Assembly: GCA_050950825.1 (NCBI GenBank)
Contig: JBMNIH010000002.1
Span: forward strand, 64,001 to 128,000
DNA: 64,000 nt
Direction: 5' to 3'
Origin: Clostridia bacterium
GTDB taxonomy: Bacteria; Bacillota; Clostridia; JAAYHZ01
A program made the position numbers and the translations under genes. The notes under the pieces were generated by a model, which saw nothing but the letters and a program-made list of their open reading frames with translations, was not told where the DNA came from and ran no database searches. Positions 31,848 to 38,698 of the stretch are shown here, in pieces; positions within the stretch are counted from its first letter, which is position 1; each line of letters begins with the position of its first letter.

Positions 31848-33041
31848 CTATTGAGTATTTGAAATCTCTTCCGACCTTGTATCCTTTTTTGCTTCTCTGC
31901 AAGCTTCGCAAGGATAATATCGGTTAAGCCAATCCAACTCGGTACGCTCATCGTTCCGTTCGTACCATCCTTCACCATGAAGTCGGTTAATCCTTTGAAA
32001 GTACTCCTCGTACATGCCGCTGATTCGGTCAAGCGAATAGTTCTTTATCGCCCACTCCCTGCAAGTTTCGGGTTTAATTCTCCAAATGTTATTCACAGCC
32101 CAACAAAACTCTTCGAAAACCCTGCAGCGATAACCGGTTAAACCGTGGAGGACCGTTTCGGGAAAAGCTCCCCAATCGCTCGTGATTACAGGAGTCCCGC
32201 ACATTTGTGCTTCCACATTAACACCGCCAAAGGGCTCAAGATAATAAGTAGGCATCAAGACGGCTTTTGCATTCCCTAGAAGTTTGGCTCTTTCTTCCGG
32301 ACCTACGGCAGGATGATAAACGATATGCTTTTCATTACTCAAATGAATGCCTTCGTTCGGGTCTTCCAAAGAACCTTGGCCTACAATGTACAATAAATTG
32401 TTTGTAGCTTTTGCAACGTCAGACGCTACTTGAACACCCTTACGATGGATGATTCTGCCGAAATACAGCAAGTAATCTTGCTTTTTAGGCCGGAAGGGGA
32501 AATCCTCAGGTTCGAAATAATTGGGTATAACGGCATCGTACCATACGCCGTCATCTTGATTGATCAATCCGTAAATATAATGCATCCAAGCGTATGACTC
32601 GAATACACGAAAACAGGAGAATACTCCGGTATAACCGATTCCGGGTTCTACCGTTATAAGGTCAACGGCATCGGCAACGGGCTTTTGATAATTACCCATA
32701 GGACATAGCAATATATCTTGAGGTTGTTTGCGTTCCAATATAGCTTTTATGGCATTTTGATTAAAAGATTGGTGAGCGAAATCATGGGGATCATGTTTAA
32801 AGAATGTTCGGGATCTGTCATAATCTCCGTATGTTTGCGAAAGAATATCTTGCGTTAATACCGGAATAAATTCATCGCATAAAACATCGGATCCTTCGAC
32901 GCCGTAGAAATAGATGGTGTGTCCGTACTTTTTTAGCATTTTCGAAAGCTTTATGATTTTCTGGGTATAAGCACATGCTGAATTTTTTCTGTTGGTTTCT
33001 AAATGAGCCAATCCTAATAAATGAAATCTTAAGTGTGACAT
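31848..33041 (-). CDS. Glycosyltransferase family 4 (GT-B)
   Basis: YFGRIIHRKG, EPFGGVNVEAQMCGTPVITSDWGAFPE. Confidence 0.9.
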   Translation of the reverse strand: MSHLRFHLLGLAHLETNRKNSACAYTQKIIKLSKMLKKYGHTIYFYGVEGSDVLCDEFIPVLTQDILSQTYGDYDRSRTFFKHDPHDFAHQSFNQNAIKAILERKQPQDILLCPMGNYQKPVADAVDLITVEPGIGYTGVFSCFRVFESYAWMHYIYGLINQDDGVWYDAVIPNYFEPEDFPFRPKKQDYLLYFGRIIHRKGVQVASDVAKATNNLLYIVGQGSLEDPNEGIHLSNEKHIVYHPAVGPEERAKLLGNAKAVLMPTYYLEPFGGVNVEAQMCGTPVITSDWGAFPETVLHGLTGYRCRVFEEFCWAVNNIWRIKPETCREWAIKNYSLDRISGMYEEYFQRINRLHGEGWYERNDERTELDWLNRYYPCEACREAKKDTRSEEISNTQ

Positions 33042-33107: not shown

Positions 33108-34028
33108 TTAAGAAATAACTTCCACAAGACAGGTGGAAACGGCTATTTGGTTACCCAAGATAGCAACACCAAATGCGGTTCTCGTTACCAACTCATTATC
33201 TGTTGAACTGCCTCCGGCACTAACATTTACATTGGTACCGGTTCCAACAAAGGATTGCAGTGTAGCTCTTACACCGGCTTCACATTCCGCTTCACATCCG
33301 GTCGGTAGCGGAGAAGGCGGGTCTAAGAAAGAAAAATCGGTGAAGTTGTCATTGCCTGTCAGAGAGATAAATGCAATCCGACATATACTAATGCGTTCGG
33401 TTATAGTTCCTGCATCATTGGCTAAGTTGAAAATCGTATTATTCGTGATGCTGTGAGGTCTTCCGCTCACGGATCCGCCGGTGTCTATATTCACGACAAT
33501 ATTCGATGTCGGGAATCTCGTGATGATTTGCATAATGAGATTCTTCATTTGTGCAATACATGCGCAAGTAGCATCGGATCCCGGAGGTCCCTGAGGACCT
33601 GTTGCACCCGTTGCTCCGCTTGCTCCGCTCGGACCGGTAGCACCCGTTGCGCCGCTTGCCCCGCTCGGACCGGTAGCACCCGTTGCGCCGCTTGCCCCGC
33701 TCGGACCGGTAGCACCCGTTGCGCCGCTTGCTCCGCTCGGACCGGTAGCACCCGTTGCACCGATTGCTCCGCTCGGACCGGTGGCTCCCGTTGCTCCGCT
33801 TGCTCCGCTCGGACCGGTTGCTCCCGTCGCCCCGGTTTTTCCTCTTAAACCCATCGGACCGGTTTCGCCTTTCGGACCGGGAGGGCCGGGCGGGCCGGAA
33901 GGGCCGGGTATACAACAACAGCAATGGCATAAATTATCACAGTAGTAAGAACATTTCCATACGTTCATGCCGTTTCTGACCTCAACAAGTTTACACTCGA
34001 CATTAAAAATAGGTTTATGCTTATTAAT
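33108..34028 (-). CDS. Collagen-like, Cys-rich spore-surface (BclA-like) protein
   Basis: [10 protein letters not shown] followed by a Gly-X-Y tract and a Cys-containing C-terminal domain; start uncertain (ATT 34028, GTG 34037 or ATG 33968). Confidence 0.85.
33595..33830 (-). repeat. 36-bp tandem repeat encoding [12 protein letters not shown], about 6 copies
   Basis: Repeated GGACCGGTAGCACCCGTTGCGCCGCTTGCYCCGCTC. Confidence 0.9.
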
Positions 34029-34050
34029 AGTGATCACCTCCTTTTGCTAA

Positions 34051-34080: not shown

Positions 34081-34347
34081 ACGAACGGATCCGAGAAAAA
34101 ATTATTATGTAAACAACAAAAAAGGAACATTTGAATGAACTGCTAATAGAGTTGAAAAAAAATCGGGTAGGAGACTACTCATTAATTGAGTAGCCGTCCT
34201 CCCACACCACCGTACGTACCGTTCGGTATACGGCGGTTCAACAAGAGTTCAATTTCTTAAGCAAGTTCAGCTATAAAGCCAGTGTATCCGCGCTTCTGAA
34301 GGCGCTCGTTCGTAATGGTTTGTGAAAGTATGGGGCTATTGGCAATT

Positions 34348-34415
34348 CTCCAGTAGCCTTTTCTTGTATTGGCAAATTTCCCTCCAGTAGCCTTTTCTTG
34401 TATTGGCAAATTTCC
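34348..34415. repeat. Perfect 34-bp tandem duplication
   Basis: CTCCAGTAGCCTTTTCTTGTATTGGCAAATTTCC x2. Confidence 0.95.
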
Positions 34416-34985
34416 ATGCTTTCTGTCTGTCCAATCCCAGTTTCACTAGATTTTGAAAACGGGTACGGATTTTCTTCCATTGTTTCCAGATACACATTCG
34501 CAGTCGCCTGCGTGTCCATTCATCCAGTGAACGTGCGAGAGATTTCATGTCCGCAATTCTGAAGTAGTTGACCCATCCTTTGATGAGTTGCTTTATCTTC
34601 TGCAGGCGAACGTCTATACTCACCCCGTTGCTCCTTGATGTTATGTTGCGTATCTTTTCCTTTAATCTCTCTACGGACTTTTTGTGTACCCGGATTCTCA
34701 CGCCTTCTTTCCCGTGATAGAATGAGAATCCAAGGAACTTTCTCTTCCACGGTCTGTCAACCGCGCTCTTCTCGCGGTTAACTCTTAACCTCAGTTTTCC
34801 TTCCAGAAATTTAGTGACACTCTGCATCGTGCGTTCAGCCGCTTTCCTGCTTCTCACATAAATATTGCAGTCATCAGCATAACGGCAGAATTTATGTCCC
34901 CTCTTCTCCAGTTCTTTATCCAGTTCGTTCAGCATAATGTTGCTTAACAGGGGACTGAGTGGTCCGCCCTGTGGGCATCCTTCTT

Positions 34986-35033
34986 CAGTTTCGATTACGA
35001 CCCCGTTTACAGTTTCGATTACGACCCCGTTTA
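34986..35033. repeat. Perfect 24-bp tandem duplication
   Basis: CAGTTTCGATTACGACCCCGTTTA x2 (NGVVIETV-NGVVIETE). Confidence 0.95.
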
Positions 35034-35613
35034 TCATGACGCCCGCTTTCAGATATTCCCGGATAAGCTTCAGTACCCTCTTGTCTTTTACCCTCCTTGC
35101 CACCAGCGCCATGAGTTTATCATGGTTCACAGTATCAAAATATTTCGCAAGGTCGATGTCCACTACCCAGTCATACCCTTCATTTATATATCCCTGTGCT
35201 CTTTTTATTGCTTGGTGAGCACTTCTTCCCGGCCGAAATCCAAAGCTGTTCTCCGAGAATTCAGGGTCAAATATGGATGCAAGTACTTGGGCAATGGCCT
35301 GCTGAACCATCCTGTCGACTACCGTGGGAATCCCCAGTAACCTGACTCCTCCGTCCGGTTTCGGTATCTCCACTCTCCGAACGGGCTTGGGACGATACGT
35401 CCCTGCCTTCAATTCCCCGATTAGATTATTGCCCTTCTCTTTCAGGTATGGCAGAAGTTCATCCACCTTCATACCGTCAATTCCATGGGAGCCTTTGTTC
35501 CTTACCACCTGTTTATAGGCAGCGTTCATGTTGTTTCTACTCAATATCTTCTCGAGCAAATCAAAGGTACTTACTTCTCCATTGTCCTGTCCGTTTGTTT
35601 CCGCCGGAAGGGT

Positions 35614-35637
35614 TCTCCGCACTCCTCTCCGCACTCC
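35614..35637. repeat. Perfect 12-bp tandem duplication
   Basis: TCTCCGCACTCC x2 (GVRR-GVRR). Confidence 0.9.
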
Positions 35638-36144
35638 TGCCATATCTCGGGGTTCCACCCCTGCCTCTGGCAGGTAGTCTTCATATGAAGTTGTCTGCTC
35701 TCTACAAATCCTTCCCGAGTCCTTCAATCTTTCAGAACCTCCTGTTGTTCGGCCCTTCCGCTCCGTTCATGACCGCTGCGTACTATGGCCTCTGCTGACT
35801 TCTGACCGTTCAGCCGTACATTGCTGCACGGGTTGCCTTGTGGAAGTTCATCCGACTCAGCGTACCGGTCAGATCTCCGCGGGTAAGCGCGCGCCCCTTC
35901 ATCCCATATACCTGCTTCATTTACACCGCAAGCCTCGGATAGCATTGGACTTCGTTTTGTTATGCAAACTCGTCCGACTTGCATATGCCTCATATGAAGT
36001 TCCTGTTCGTCAGGCCGGGATTTTGCCTCCGACTTCCTTCAGATTCCACCTCACGATGGACACCCTTGTCTTTGGCTAACGGTTGGTGCTATCAACCCCC
36101 GTAACGGACTTTCACCGTCAAGGTCGCGCGCATGCCGCGCGCAC

Positions 36145-36183
36145 ATAAAAAAGGTATATCAAGTATAAAACTTGATATACCCG
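36145..36183 (-). terminator. Intrinsic terminator of the mscS-parB gene; intron target
   Basis: GGTATATCAAGT-loop-ACTTGATATACC followed by a T-tract on the minus strand, then the intron 5' end. Confidence 0.85.
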
Positions 36184-36197
36184 TCTTAACGGAATTT

Positions 36198-37427
36198 CTA
36201 ATGTTCTTTGCTGTCTCGAATATCGGATTTTTCTCCTTGGATAATGGCCGGGATTGTTCTCCATCCTAATCGTTTACATGCTTCATAGCGCAAGTGACCG
36301 GCCAATATTTCATAGGTTCCTTTAATCGGATTTCTATTCAGCAAAATCGGCTGCAGGAGTCCTTGGGTGGAAATGCTTTCAATAATCGGCTCAAGCTCCG
36401 CATAATCCACTTTCAAATCCGGTTCTTGGATATGGGACATATCGATGTCCTGAATATGAGGCATGCTTTTATGCTTGCTGGCGTCCGCTTCTTTACGTTC
36501 CGCTCCGGCTTTCGAAGAATATATATAAGGTATGGCCATATCCACATTCGGATTATTCTGAAACTCTTGGAATATCATCTTGTTGATATTATACGATATT
36601 TCCGCTCTTCTCTGTACTTGGGTTTGGTATCGTAATCTCAAATAAACCCCGTAATCATACAGGTCGGATCGTATGTAGGGCTCGCTGCCTGTTTTCTCGA
36701 TGATCTCTTTTGTTACCTGTCTTGCAGCATCCAATAGAATCCGCTCCGCCGTCTTCCAGTCGGAATCATATGTGATACGAATAACGACTTCGTCCAGCAT
36801 ATATGCCGCTTCCTGTTTTACCGTATAGTTGATGACTACCTGATTAAATAGCATGGCGTTCGGAACCAATATGTATCGGCCTACGGCTTCTTCACTTCCG
36901 ATGCTACCTCCTACTTGGTCCAACCGGGTGTACATCGCGCCGATGTCCTTTACGTCACCTACCAGTCCGAGGGAAGGGAATTGTATACGATCACCCGGTC
37001 GGAAAGGTCTTTTTACCGATACAAGAATCCATGCGGCAAAACCACTGACAGGAGCTTGCAAGGACCAACCTAAAAGCATTCCGCCGAACATAGCAAAGAA
37101 ATCGCTGAAGGCTTTTAACTTTCCGAATGCAAAACCGATGCTTAAGATCACCGCAAAAAAAGCTATCAGTTTGTAAAGGCGTGATAACATCATCCCTTCC
37201 GCTATGGGTTTTTGCTTTGCTTGCATCAACCAAACCGTAACAACCGTTAACAGAAACGTTGCCGCTAAAATCAAAGCGACATTCATAAACATTCGGGGAA
37301 TCGTAATACCGGATTCTAATACTTGCCAATCAAACGGAAGGTAGTTTTCTGCCGCAAAAAAGACAACCGCAACCGCAGCGGAAATTGCCAGCGAAACTAT
37401 CGTTTTCTTTTTAAATTGATTCTCCAT
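36198..37427 (-). CDS. MscS-family mechanosensitive channel fused to a C-terminal ParB/sulfiredoxin-like domain
   Basis: TM helices, PFRPGDRIQF..GDVKDIG..YTRL, VPNAML, ITYDSD; from about residue 322 SISTQGLLQPILL...YEILAGHLRYEACKRLGWRTIPAII. Confidence 0.85.
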   Translation of the reverse strand: MENQFKKKTIVSLAISAAVAVVFFAAENYLPFDWQVLESGITIPRMFMNVALILAATFLLTVVTVWLMQAKQKPIAEGMMLSRLYKLIAFFAVILSIGFAFGKLKAFSDFFAMFGGMLLGWSLQAPVSGFAAWILVSVKRPFRPGDRIQFPSLGLVGDVKDIGAMYTRLDQVGGSIGSEEAVGRYILVPNAMLFNQVVINYTVKQEAAYMLDEVVIRITYDSDWKTAERILLDAARQVTKEIIEKTGSEPYIRSDLYDYGVYLRLRYQTQVQRRAEISYNINKMIFQEFQNNPNVDMAIPYIYSSKAGAERKEADASKHKSMPHIQDIDMSHIQEPDLKVDYAELEPIIESISTQGLLQPILLNRNPIKGTYEILAGHLRYEACKRLGWRTIPAIIQGEKSDIRDSKEH

Positions 37428-37641
37428 AAGCGTACCTCATCTTTTTAAGATTAGCTATATTTATTATATATTTTAAACTTCGCATTGACAACCGGCTGAA
37501 TGAAGGGTTGAAGATATAGTATAAAATATCCTTGCTTCCAAAAATATCTATATCATGAAAGCAAGGATGAGGGTTCGACGGATTGTATTCTTGCCCAAAT
37601 TCCGAGTTACGAAAACAGTAAAAGGCATAAATTACATCTTT

Positions 37642-38283
37642 TTATATCTTCGTATACCCGTCATGAAAAACAATGGCATCCAGCTTACGACCTTCTTTAC
37701 ACATTTCGCAATCCTTCGGGTCAAATAACTTGTACCCGGGAATATCTTCGCTCGTAAACAAAGAGTGAATCTTTTGGGTGAGTTTTTCCGGATAAGCATT
37801 GAATAAAGCGGAAATCCATGCAAGCCGGCCCCCGTAATAGGACAAAAGCTCCAAAATACCGTTCACCGTTATTCCCGTCGATATGGACGATATGAGAAGC
37901 AGTACGTTTTGATTGAAAACCATTTCTTTTACATTGTCCTGAAACATTAATTTTCTGTGGATATTATTCAGCGGCGTCACAACATGAATATCTTTTCCGC
38001 TGTTAATGACGGATGTTCCCGATTTTCGGAGTTCGTCCGCCATATAGGCACCTATAACCTCCGTTCCTTCGATACAAACAATGGTATCGATCGGAGTCGC
38101 GGCTAAATAAGGGGTTATTAATTCTACAGCTACCTCTTTGGCAATCCGTGCATTTGTTTTTAGATCACACAGATCAAGATAATAATTCAGATGGGAGTGG
38201 CTGGTCGTAAAATGCCCGGGTATCACTCTGACGGCAATGGACGGATTTCTTGTCAACGAGATTTTAAAGCTCCGTCTTTCCAT
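37642..38283 (-). CDS. Type I phosphoribosyltransferase-fold protein (orotate PRT-like) with C-terminal CxxC
   Basis: GHFTTSHSHLNYYLD, IVCIEGTEVIG, VLLLISSISTG at the PRPP-loop position, CEMCK. Confidence 0.7.
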   Translation of the reverse strand: MERRSFKISLTRNPSIAVRVIPGHFTTSHSHLNYYLDLCDLKTNARIAKEVAVELITPYLAATPIDTIVCIEGTEVIGAYMADELRKSGTSVINSGKDIHVVTPLNNIHRKLMFQDNVKEMVFNQNVLLLISSISTGITVNGILELLSYYGGRLAWISALFNAYPEKLTQKIHSLFTSEDIPGYKLFDPKDCEMCKEGRKLDAIVFHDGYTKI

Positions 38284-38698
38284 TTTTCATTCCTCCTTTT
38301 CACACCCATTATTTACTTACAATATATATCAATATATATAAGCCTTATGGTAATCGATGCATCCGTGTAAAAATTGCATTTGCAATGCCGGTTATAGAAT
38401 GAAGCCGTCTGCAAATAAAAACGGATGTCTCAAATCGCCCGGTCAAAAATCTTCAAAATGAAAAGTAAGAAGAAGACAGAACTTACATATTACCCGATAC
38501 CGTGTCACAAGCCTTCGATTGATTTTTGTCGATTCCGTCTTTTAACGATCTCTCTAATATATATGCCTTTAATATAAGCAATAAATGGTTCGCCTTTAAA
38601 CCTTTAAGCCTTTAATATACAATGAGTTGTATTAATGTCGATGGATTCCCTTTAAAAATATCTTAGCATGATTATTTTCGAATATCAATATGATCGGT

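Follow-up and report, generated by a model that had tools for sequence, protein, structure and literature searches.

Channels of the MscS family are known to acquire sensor domains, and in the bCNG-type MscS-like channels a cyclic-nucleotide-binding domain is carried at the C-terminus. The ParB-CTPase fold is now known outside chromosome segregation, and the ParB/Srx superfamily also includes sulfiredoxin, whose GCHR motif holds the catalytic Cys after the Gly. The account given for Caulobacter ParB describes seven residues at each of which one substitution was enough to abolish CTP binding or weaken it, among them R60, R103, N136 and R139; it proposes Q58 and E102 as catalytic residues, finds that S74 and G79 help distinguish CTP from UTP, and places helix alpha3 along the pocket, where it pairs with the opposite subunit (PMC8367383). 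In the main text of the 2025 survey of ParB-fold proteins by Kaljevic et al., Box III is often missing from non-canonical members, and of 28 purified proteins 11 bound CTP, ATP or GTP and 17 bound no NTP; the minimal elements analysed in the non-canonical NTP binders comprise the C-motif and the GxxR arginine, GLLQS is among the C-motif loops of the CTP binders, and replacing the GxxR arginine by alanine abolished binding (bioRxiv 10.1101/2025.10.10.680097). The two kinds of protein meet in the parBL-mscS operon of S. aureus, for which it is reported that co-expression of the ParB-like gene and mscS, but of neither alone, lowers oxacillin resistance and that expression of both is associated with lower K+, while the biochemical function of ParBL, by annotation a putative transcriptional regulator, is unclear to the authors (bioRxiv 10.64898/2026.05.29.728642). 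A fusion of the two is described neither in the literature searched nor in the main text of the 2025 survey, where the terms mechanosensitive, MscS, channel, transmembrane and PF00924 do not occur; the first-pass annotation of the locus reported here had likewise named no characterised protein of this architecture.

In the window (the whole 64,000-nt stretch of DNA that was analysed), one intact gene encodes an MscS-type channel and a ParB/Srx-fold domain as a single polypeptide (Table 1). The ORF of 409 aa plus TAG lies on the minus strand, 37427..36198, and fills nearly all of an open frame of only 412 codons, while the plus-strand frame across the same interval contains many stops; the first-pass annotation had the coordinates and the single 409-aa ORF right but left the strand unstated. 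It also held that no Shine-Dalgarno sequence precedes the internal ATG at 36464 (M322), and inspection of the upstream sequence, cagcaagcataaaagc, found no GGAGG-like element there. The gene has a promoter-like site, a Shine-Dalgarno-like element and a terminator-like hairpin of its own, although promoter-like sites are as frequent here as in shuffled sequence (4 found, 4.3 expected). Contigs from four RNA libraries cover the gene and cross the domain junction without change, which is weak evidence because such libraries can contain DNA. One of these contigs starts at 37454, a weak hint for the promoter-like site; contig ends near 36190-36197 and 37442-37454 were not taken as transcript ends.

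Table 1. Features of the channel-ParB gene and its flanks (positions in the window)
Feature	Positions	Strand	Basis
Whole ORF, MscS-type channel + ParB/Srx-like domain	36198..37427	minus	ORF translation, Pfam
Promoter-like TTGTCA-17-TATAAT, 11/12 matches, 36 nt upstream of ATG	37463..37491	minus	consensus match only
Shine-Dalgarno-like GAGG, 8-11 nt ahead of ATG at 37427	37435..37438	minus	sequence inspection
Residues 1-103, three predicted membrane helices (H2-29, H43-70, H75-100)	37119..37427	minus	model, alignment
Residues 104-140, pore helix TM3a/TM3b	37008..37118	minus	alignment to MscS part of YnaI-MscS chimera
Residues 141-205, MscS beta domain	36813..37007	minus	Pfam, alignment, conservation
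Residues 206-305, alpha/beta cage + last MscS strand (DMAIPYIYSS)	36513..36812	minus	model, Foldseek, conservation
Residues 306-325, charged linker, variable sequence	36453..36512	minus	model, conservation
Residues 326-397, minimal ParB/Srx-fold domain, beta-alpha-beta-beta-alpha-beta	36237..36452	minus	Pfam, alignment, domain model
C-motif (Box I) equivalent S351-ISTQ-G356-LLQ-P360	36348..36377	minus	alignment, family conservation
Box II remnant G377-H378-L379-R380, replacing GERR	36288..36299	minus	alignment, family conservation
Residues 398-409 + stop, short variable tail	36198..36236	minus	alignment; canonical ParB continues into Box III + HTH
Intrinsic-terminator-like hairpin (13 pairs) then T-run, 16 nt past stop codon	36146..36182	minus	computed

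That the protein begins with a complete MscS channel, as had been proposed, is borne out by profile and fold. Pfam MS_channel_2nd matches residues 127-202 (E 2.7e-10, 40.6 bits against a cut-off of 20.2), MS_channel_3rd is weak in the same scan (E 0.091), and the PF00924 beta-domain match is above cut-off in 40 of 40 rescanned relatives as well. A Foldseek search with the AF2 model of the full-length protein (pLDDT 81.3) ranks structures of E. coli MscS first (best E 6e-13), and the top 50 consist of MscS-family channels (named MscS, YnaI, MscK, YbiO, MSL1, MSL10 and Flycatcher1) or of entries titled only 'membrane protein'. The pore helix TM3 and the RPF(R/K)xGD segment that follows it can be aligned to a YnaI-MscS chimera and to MscS (phmmer, E 9e-11 to 2e-6); in the alignment to the chimera, M117 and W121, each conserved in at least 90% of the family, fall under the two Leu of GLAVGLALQGS, and A125-P126, with the Pro invariant, under its G-S. 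Conservation is lowest in residues 1-103 (24-39% mean pairwise identity), where the K-rich N-terminus suggests an N-in topology, and highest in the beta domain (84.6%), whose invariant 9-residue insertion (Q171-E179, QVGGSIGSE, nt 36891-36917) sets it apart from that of E. coli MscS. The linker of about 20 residues is modelled with low confidence (pLDDT <50 at 304-321).

The C-terminus had been described at first pass as ParB-like, with the motifs SISTQGLLQPILL and AGHLRYEAC, both of which are present in the translation, and the HMM scan agrees: Pfam ParB_N (PF02195) matches residues 326-397 with E 6.8e-13 and 48.9 bits against a cut-off of 26.3, the match spanning only profile positions 9-78 of 95, and NCBIfam noc/parB_part models give domain-level matches at ~1e-13, far under their whole-protein cut-offs. 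Canonical ParB and Noc are the best matches of this segment in both sequence and structure, and the model of the isolated domain (pLDDT 85.6) compares with ParB/Noc nucleotide complexes at TMq 0.63-0.70. Alignment to Caulobacter ParB and to the genome's own ParB/Noc proteins places S351 at S74, G356 at G79 and the GxxR arginine R380 at R104. G356, L357, L358, Q359 and P360 of the C-motif, the helix and loop that touch the base, and G377 and R380 of the Box II remnant are kept in 40 of 40 relatives, S351 and L379 in 36 of 40 each and H378 in 32 (otherwise D, Q or N), while the flanking surface positions of the domain vary, the invariant residues being those of the pocket motifs. Since the C-motif and the GxxR arginine remain, nucleotide sensing is plausible on sequence grounds, and we tentatively favor the reading that the tail module is a regulatory attachment of the cytoplasmic cage that binds a nucleotide without hydrolysing it.

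Less probable, though the strongest of the alternatives, is that the module binds no nucleotide and has a structural or protein-binding role instead: on its tether it could plug or cap the openings of the cage, it could mediate self-association, or it could dock another protein, for example the N-domain of the cell's own ParB/Noc. Several observations lend themselves to such an adaptor: (i) most phosphate-contacting motifs of the canonical pocket are gone, as is its helix alpha3, and with four of the seven Caulobacter CTP-binding residues (R60, R103, N136 and R139) lacking a counterpart, as do Q58 and E102, the pocket may be dead; (ii) there is conservation beyond the known nucleotide motifs, in L387-G388-W389, which is invariant and specific to the family, and in C384; (iii) the tether is flexible; (iv) the genome encodes three canonical ParB/Noc proteins; and (v) the majority of the purified proteins in the survey cited above were non-binders. 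Two further points count against the sensor reading: since the conserved motifs also belong to the fold's structural core, their invariance is no proof of a ligand, and identity is higher in the MscS cage than in the ParB-like domain (71-85% against 52%), so that the main constraint may lie elsewhere. On the other hand, no residues of the domain are more invariant than those of the base-contacting C-motif and the GxxR arginine, which would not be expected of a pure adaptor, two members of the family occur in archaeal MAG bins, and no partner gene is conserved nearby in 80 related loci. ORF clustering of these loci, in which the target gene was called correctly in 61 of 80 and high-GC loci gave antisense shadow ORFs, brought out no conserved operon partner, the commonest neighbor cluster, a generic ABC ATPase, being present at 15 of the 80 loci and the next, an oxidoreductase-like protein, at 7. 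A neighboring parA, whose absence had been remarked on at first pass, was not found among the ORFs of at least 140 aa scanned at 26.4-46.3 kb, and the parA-parB pair of this genome is on another contig. The lack of conserved neighbors fits a one-gene function and counts for the favored sensor reading, as do the gene's own promoter-like site, Shine-Dalgarno-like element and terminator-like hairpin. A two-copy complex prediction for residues 318-409 (score 0.00, mark 0.42) carries no weight either way.

A true ParB-type CTPase switch, in which CTP binding, an N-engagement dimer and hydrolysis would drive channel gating, is improbable. The closest relatives in sequence and fold are CTP-binding ParB and Noc, and the equivalents of S74 and G79, which help to tell CTP from UTP in Caulobacter, are kept. 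However, P-motif 1 (QPR; Q58, R60) has no counterpart in the alignment, where this stretch is shorter and variable within the family; the full GERR with its E102 and R103 equivalents is not kept, the E position being H, D, Q or N and the R103 position L; and Box III/P-motif 3 (ENLQRE; N136, R139) and helix alpha3 are missing, as the protein ends 12 residues past the last strand. The sevenfold ring, if formed as in known MscS, would also leave uneven dimer pairing. The protein has no HTH either, as the first-pass annotation had noted: PF17762 and PF23552 are found in none of the 40 rescanned relatives, and the end comes 12 residues after the ParB_N match. The general property that ParB N-domains bind and hydrolyse CTP, invoked in that annotation, therefore cannot be assumed to transfer to a domain that lacks QPR and Box III and has G-[H/D/Q/N]-L-R for GERR; of the CTP/NTP-gated channel it proposed, nucleotide sensing stands as plausible given the retained C-motif and GxxR arginine, while a ParB-type CTPase clamp cycle appears unlikely.

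More improbable again is an enzymatic role for the channel-anchored tail within the ParB/Srx superfamily, as a sulfiredoxin, as a kinase of the SerK/SbnI type or as a ParB-like nuclease. The domain is the size of sulfiredoxin, its model compares with the Arabidopsis enzyme at TMt 0.74 and rmsd 1.6 A across 78 columns, and there are matches to free serine kinase, SbnI and sulfiredoxin, all weaker in sequence and fold than those to ParB and Noc. However, GHLR replaces GCHR, so that His and not Cys follows the GxxR Gly; the SerK and SbnI matches span only the shared core, 73-79 aligned columns of proteins of 232-254 residues; and no substrate-related neighbor gene is conserved in the 80 loci.

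Whether the fusion is conserved had been left as a question by the first-pass annotation, which allowed that its homologues might always be split. Pfam rescanning found both domains in 40 of 40 family members, and relatives are encoded in at least 177 stretches of species-representative genomes, of which the best 80 loci belong to MAGs of about a dozen bacterial phyla and to the two archaeal bins, all 80 matching into the ParB-like part; the fusion recurs in many mostly uncultured anaerobes. That it is an artefact, arising from an assembly or frameshift join or from a decaying pseudogene, is scarcely credible, given that 120 of 120 listed homologues from several independent data sources carry both domains in the same architecture, that same-genus and same-family genomes hold syntenic fusions at 82% and 74% identity, and that the exact protein occurs on 29 contigs and its domain junction is crossed unchanged in the four RNA libraries. 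Among 61 same-class genomes, separate MscS-part and ParB-part matches were found in 8, in none of them nearby on the same contig. Searching the 99-aa domain against 1.84 billion representatives gave 3954 matches at E <=1e-3 and 27 at <=1e-10; with 62 of the 150 listed matches Pfam-scanned and 20 sequences inspected, no clear stand-alone version was seen among the matches inspected. Of 12 short matches (93-135 aa), 7 start with the last MscS strand and are fusion fragments, one has the same sequence as the C-terminus of P0063, and P0123, P0134, P0145 and P0146 may be either fragments or genuinely small proteins. None of 88 matching plasmid records covers at least 80% of the protein, and no phage match to it was found. 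A foreign-island origin was rejected on the GC content of the gene (0.40-0.46, similar to its surroundings) and on its synteny in the same-genus and same-family genomes, and an anti-phage defence role was dropped because PADLOC matched 0 families at E up to 0.01.

Under the nucleotide-sensor reading, which we prefer, the protein would be a self-contained MscS-family channel, presumably a heptamer, with four predicted membrane helices, the N-terminus probably inside, and the usual cytoplasmic cage. Every subunit would end in a sulfiredoxin-sized ParB/Srx module on its flexible tether of about 20 residues, acting as a cytoplasmic ligand sensor that may hold a nucleotide through the C-motif (S351, G356-LLQP) and R380, neither hydrolysing it nor forming a ParB-type N-engaged clamp; that the ligand is a cytidine nucleotide is a weak guess. 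Docking of the module on the cage, or its release, might bias opening or conduction, and such a bias would couple solute or K+ efflux to nucleotide status.

The family joins an MscS channel to a stripped ParB/Srx domain and is conserved across about a dozen phyla. Should the domain bind a nucleotide and bias gating, turgor or ion release would be linked through it to nucleotide status, and it would offer a compact model for a minimal ParB fold without Box III; should it bind none, what is left is an MscS subfamily that is uncharacterised and unusually conserved, but no more than an ordinary addition to MscS architectures. The fusion also suggests a direct hypothesis for ParBL of the S. aureus operon, which is in turn an independent hint, by analogy, of cooperation between both protein kinds. 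Speculatively, and with more doubt than belief, ParB-fold modules might be general cytoplasmic regulators of MscS channels, fused here as a nucleotide-gated, possibly cytidine-nucleotide-gated, efflux valve and split in S. aureus as parBL-mscS, controlling K+ and beta-lactam tolerance; if true, this would be the first link of the ParB-CTPase fold to membrane transport.

Compared with E. coli MscS and YnaI (PF00924), the fused family shares the pore helix, beta domain, alpha/beta cage and last strand by HMM and fold, but adds one N-terminal helix, has Met and Trp where the alignment puts the two Leu of GLAVGLALQGS and an invariant Pro at the TM3a/b hinge, and carries the invariant QVGGSIGSE insertion and the C-terminal ParB/Srx domain. 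With the bCNG-type channels it has in common the design of an MscS core followed by a C-terminal cytoplasmic ligand-binding domain, putatively so in our case, whereas the domain is of ParB/Srx and not cNMP-binding fold, and the Pfam scan of the 409-aa protein gave no cNMP-binding family. The tail domain equals sulfiredoxin in size and topology but has GHLR for GCHR and is tethered to a membrane channel. With canonical ParB/Spo0J and Noc it shares the C-motif and the second GERR arginine, but it has GHLR for GERR and is without QPR, Box III, HTH, dimerisation domain and ParA partner. The non-canonical fusions described in the main text of the survey of Kaljevic et al. likewise combine the ParB fold with a lineage-specific partner, often lack Box III and vary in nucleotide preference, with GLLQS among the CTP-binder loops against GLLQP here. 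The S. aureus parBL-mscS operon, as reported, also couples a ParB-like protein and an MscS channel genetically, a putative split-gene parallel with two separate genes there and one fused gene here.

The 409-residue MscS-ParB protein combines, in one conserved chain, an MscS-type channel and a minimal ParB/Srx domain retaining the base motif and the key arginine. Both domains exceed the curated Pfam cut-offs (MS_channel_2nd, residues 127-202, E 2.7e-10; ParB_N, residues 326-397, E 6.8e-13), and the full-length AlphaFold2 model (40 homologues as input, mean pLDDT 81.3) has an MscS fold, its best Foldseek matches being E. coli MscS, YnaI, MscK and plant MSL channels (E down to 6e-13); the HMM scan proposed by the first-pass annotation, run with Pfam, and its assignment of the two domains to a single chain thus hold. 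In the model, five helices are followed by a beta domain and then an alpha/beta domain; confidence is low at residues 304-321, and residues 325-397 fold into a compact beta-alpha-beta-beta-alpha-beta module. NCBIfam returned domain-level matches only, to noc/parB_part, MscS and SerK, all far under the whole-protein cut-offs. The coordinates and uninterrupted ORF reported from the sequence were correct; the strand is minus, the plus-strand frame being full of stops. Upstream of ATG 37427, which has a Shine-Dalgarno-like GAGG 8-11 nt on its 5' side, the frame stays open for just three codons (open frame 412 aa), and the internal ATG at 36464 lacks an upstream SD-like element, as had been claimed. 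Gene GC content is unremarkable, and promoter-like sites are no more frequent than in shuffled sequence. Near-identical DNA is present in metagenome runs (bioreactor, sludge, unspecified), and the gene is spanned over its full length by contigs of four metatranscriptome libraries made from biogas or anaerobic digesters (e.g., 36183-38400 and 36197-37454); since such libraries can contain DNA, these contigs argue only weakly for expression.

Conservation of the fusion, which the first-pass annotation had proposed to check, is extensive. Scoring of 8000 candidates gave 1011 matching proteins at E <=1e-3; among the matches listed, PF00924 and PF02195 occur together in 120/120 (identity 54-99%), and both were found again in all 40 of these that were rescanned. 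A pattern scan of 185,579 species, each represented by a single genome, yielded 189 stretches, 177 of which encode relatives. The best 80 of the 177 are all MAGs, match the query to residue 395-409, i.e., into the ParB-like part, and belong by title to Planctomycetota, Lentisphaerae, Kiritimatiellia, Verrucomicrobiota, Chloroflexota/Anaerolineae, Bacillota, Armatimonadota, Spirochaetota, Gemmatimonadota, Latescibacterota, Thermodesulfobacteriota and Handelsmanbacteria, together with two archaeal bins (Thermococci, Hadarchaeota; identity 61-62%). The archaeal-bin members and homologue P0034 (proteins P0030, P0034 and P0045; loci L011, L014 and relatives) carry an insertion of ~70 residues in the first loop predicted to lie outside, and a weak DUF4815 match occurs in 3/40 aligned sequences. 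On a quick ML tree of 58 rows (the window protein and 57 correctly called ORFs of 330-520 aa; 23/80 loci were left out because ORF calling failed or the gene was cut), the phylum changes 15 times, against a minimum of 9 and 29.9 in shuffles; Bacillota occupy at least three separate places, and a three-member Clostridia clade with the window protein lies amid Planctomycetota, adjoining the archaeal pair. This pattern looks like vertical descent within lineages with some interphylum transfer, MAG binning errors being possible. In 61 genomes of the same class, the full-length fusion was found in five: the window's own, a congeneric one (82%), another member of its family (74%) and two from other families (48% and 43%); the other matches in the 61 genomes are separate, weak hits to MscS or canonical ParB. 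Synteny at the locus is kept inside the window's family, with citrate synthase next to the gene. That the fusion is an artefact can practically be dismissed, given its conservation, its synteny and the RNA-library contigs spanning the domain junction. None of 88 matching plasmid records reached >=80% coverage, and neither phage records nor PADLOC defence models matched the protein.

ORF clustering across the best 80 of the 177 related loci revealed no conserved neighbour gene, the commonest clusters being a generic ABC ATPase (15/80) and an oxidoreductase-like protein (7/80), and the reported lack of an adjacent parA was confirmed among the neighbouring ORFs scanned. In the window, the neighbours also include a metallophosphoesterase and a DegT aminotransferase. 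The upstream 213-aa ORF is 68% conserved in the same-genus MAG and missing from the same-family locus, where the collagen-like protein and the group II intron are also missing. The intron, present in five copies in the genome (one at 100%, four at 96%), starts with GUGCG directly past the T-run and 'AT' that trail the terminator hairpin of the MscS-ParB gene, and another copy in RNA-library contigs likewise has a hairpin and TTTTTTATG ahead of it; this setting fits the bacterial intron class inserting after intrinsic terminators. The genome has one other MscS gene and, on another contig, an ordinary parA-parB pair together with two Noc-like ParBs; PNxxQPRK, GERR and ENLQRE are intact in both Noc-like paralogues and in the genome's ParB.

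Features of the MscS-ParB locus and of parB genes elsewhere in the same genome (window positions unless a locus is named)
Feature	Position	Strand	Remarks
MscS-ParB ORF	36198-37427	minus	409 codons + TAG; single open frame
Promoter-like TTGTCA-17-TATAAT	37491-37463	minus	consensus match only
13-pair hairpin + T-run	36182-36146	minus	16 nt past stop codon; consensus match only
213-aa ORF	37642-38283	minus	directly upstream; no Pfam match; faint PRTase-like (PurR C-terminal) NCBIfam match, E 0.0024
Group II intron, complete, 1983 nt	34162-36144	minus	Rfam D1-D4 + domain V/VI matches
Intron RT-maturase ORF	35727..34336		RVT_1 + GIIM present; endonuclease domain absent
Collagen-like protein	33108-34037	minus	long GxT/GxS triplet repeats; Pfam Collagen E 1.9e-17
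Group-1 glycosyltransferase	31848-33041		adjoins collagen-like protein
Two tandem Noc-like ParB paralogues	L002 96-950, 1000-1836	minus	beside rsmG/mnmG
parA-parB pair	L001 605-2280		elsewhere on contig of Noc-like paralogues

When the channel part is aligned with the MscS portion of a solved YnaI-MscS chimera, FAMFGGMLLGWSLQAP falls under VLGAAGLAVGLALQGS, and M117 and W121 (both >=90% conserved) therefore fall under the two leucines that form the hydrophobic seal in E. coli MscS, L105 and L109; A125-P126, of which P126 is invariant, align with the G-S of the TM3a/b hinge. Mean pairwise identity in the 40 aligned sequences is 24% in the N-terminal helix, 39% in the next two helices, 76% in the pore helix, 71% in the alpha/beta domain, 36% in the linker, 52% in the ParB-like domain and 10% in the tail, values that, with that of the beta domain, mark the cage as unusually constrained for cross-phylum sequences. 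The beta domain (36813-37007, residues 141-205) is the most conserved region between phyla, at 85% average identity, and differs from that of E. coli MscS by a 9-residue insertion, QVGGSIGSE, most positions of which are invariant or near-invariant in the family. The abundance of K in the N-terminus and in the loop at 70-75 points to four membrane helices in an N-in arrangement, which would place the C-terminal module in the cytoplasm.

By sequence, the nearest solved relatives of the ParB-like domain are Noc, Caulobacter and Myxococcus ParB and B. subtilis Spo0J (E 1e-8 to 1e-6), followed by free serine kinase, a P. furiosus hypothetical protein and H. pylori ParB (8e-5 to 8e-4), with sulfiredoxin at 9e-3. 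The domain-only model (pLDDT 85.6) superposes on ParB and Noc nucleotide complexes (TMq 0.63-0.70) and spans nearly the entire 89-residue chain of Arabidopsis sulfiredoxin (78 columns, TMt 0.74, rmsd 1.6 A); as modelled, it is a minimal ParB/Srx fold. Since an exhaustive domain-only search ranked above the canonical ParBs only fused proteins or fragments thereof, the module seems to derive from a ParB/Noc N-domain that was shortened before becoming fixed on the channel. The reported absence of an HTH is upheld, as the protein stops 12 residues beyond the ParB_N match and PF17762 occurs in 0/40 relatives.

Pairwise alignment with Caulobacter ParB (offset of 10; the genome's own ParB and Noc proteins were also aligned) equates S351, G356, G377, H378, L379 and R380 with S74, G79, G101, E102, R103 and R104. 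Jalal et al. (2021, PMC8367383) describe contacts of S74 and G79 with the cytosine, report that CTP binding is lost or weakened by the single substitutions R60A, R103A, R104A, R139A, N136A, G79S and S74A, propose Q58 and E102 as catalytic, and show the nucleotide sandwiched by helices alpha1-3 and the other subunit's alpha3. The MscS-ParB family keeps S74, G79 and R104. It has no counterpart of Q58 or R60, its PNxxQPRK stretch being shorter and variable, none of E102 or R103, and, since the chain stops too early, none of N136, R139 or helix alpha3. G356, L357, L358, Q359, P360, G377 and R380 are invariant (40/40), S351 and L379 are each found in 36/40, and H378 in 32/40, with D, Q or N in the rest.

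Four readings of the module were weighed: (i) it may be a cytoplasmic nucleotide sensor, which we favor tentatively; it would work without hydrolysis or a clamp cycle and, tethered under the cage, would modulate the channel; (ii) somewhat unlikely, it is a nucleotide-dead structural or protein-binding appendage; (iii) it is a true CTPase switch, which is improbable since the catalytic and phosphate residues and alpha3 are missing; (iv) very improbably, it is a Srx-, SerK- or nuclease-type enzyme. According to the main text of a 2025 survey of ParB-CTPase-fold proteins (Kaljevic et al., bioRxiv 10.1101/2025.10.10.680097), non-canonical members often lack Box III, 11/28 purified proteins bound CTP, ATP or GTP and 17/28 none, the GxxR arginine is needed for binding, and specificity is unpredictable from sequence; the C-motif loops of CTP binders there include GLLQS, compared with GLLQP in the MscS-ParB family. 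The observation behind the earlier proposal of a CTP/NTP-gated channel is confirmed, and the proposal itself is partly supported: the base motif and key arginine are kept, but the proposed catalytic residues and alpha3 are missing.

Where family members have database names, these already reflect the two domains ('ParB N-terminal domain-containing protein', 'mechanosensitive ion channel', 'small-conductance mechanosensitive channel'), and the ESM Atlas holds two clusters with both families (114 and 58 members). We found no published description of the architecture among the papers listed for MscS with ParB or sulfiredoxin; 'mechanosensitive', 'MscS', 'channel', 'transmembrane' and 'PF00924' do not occur in the main text of the 2025 survey, whose supplementary tables might list the pairing. 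The family is uncharacterized, widespread among uncultured anaerobes and open to direct testing. According to the one relevant paper among them, a 2026 preprint on S. aureus (10.64898/2026.05.29.728642), a ParB-like gene and mscS form one operon induced by lipoteichoic-acid defects, lower oxacillin resistance requires their co-expression, K+ and c-di-AMP levels are lower in association with parBL/mscS expression, and the biochemical function of ParBL is unclear to its authors; by analogy, this operon is possibly a split-gene counterpart of the fusion, which itself varies two known designs, the MscS channel extended by a putative sensor domain and the ParB fold, here paired with a new partner.
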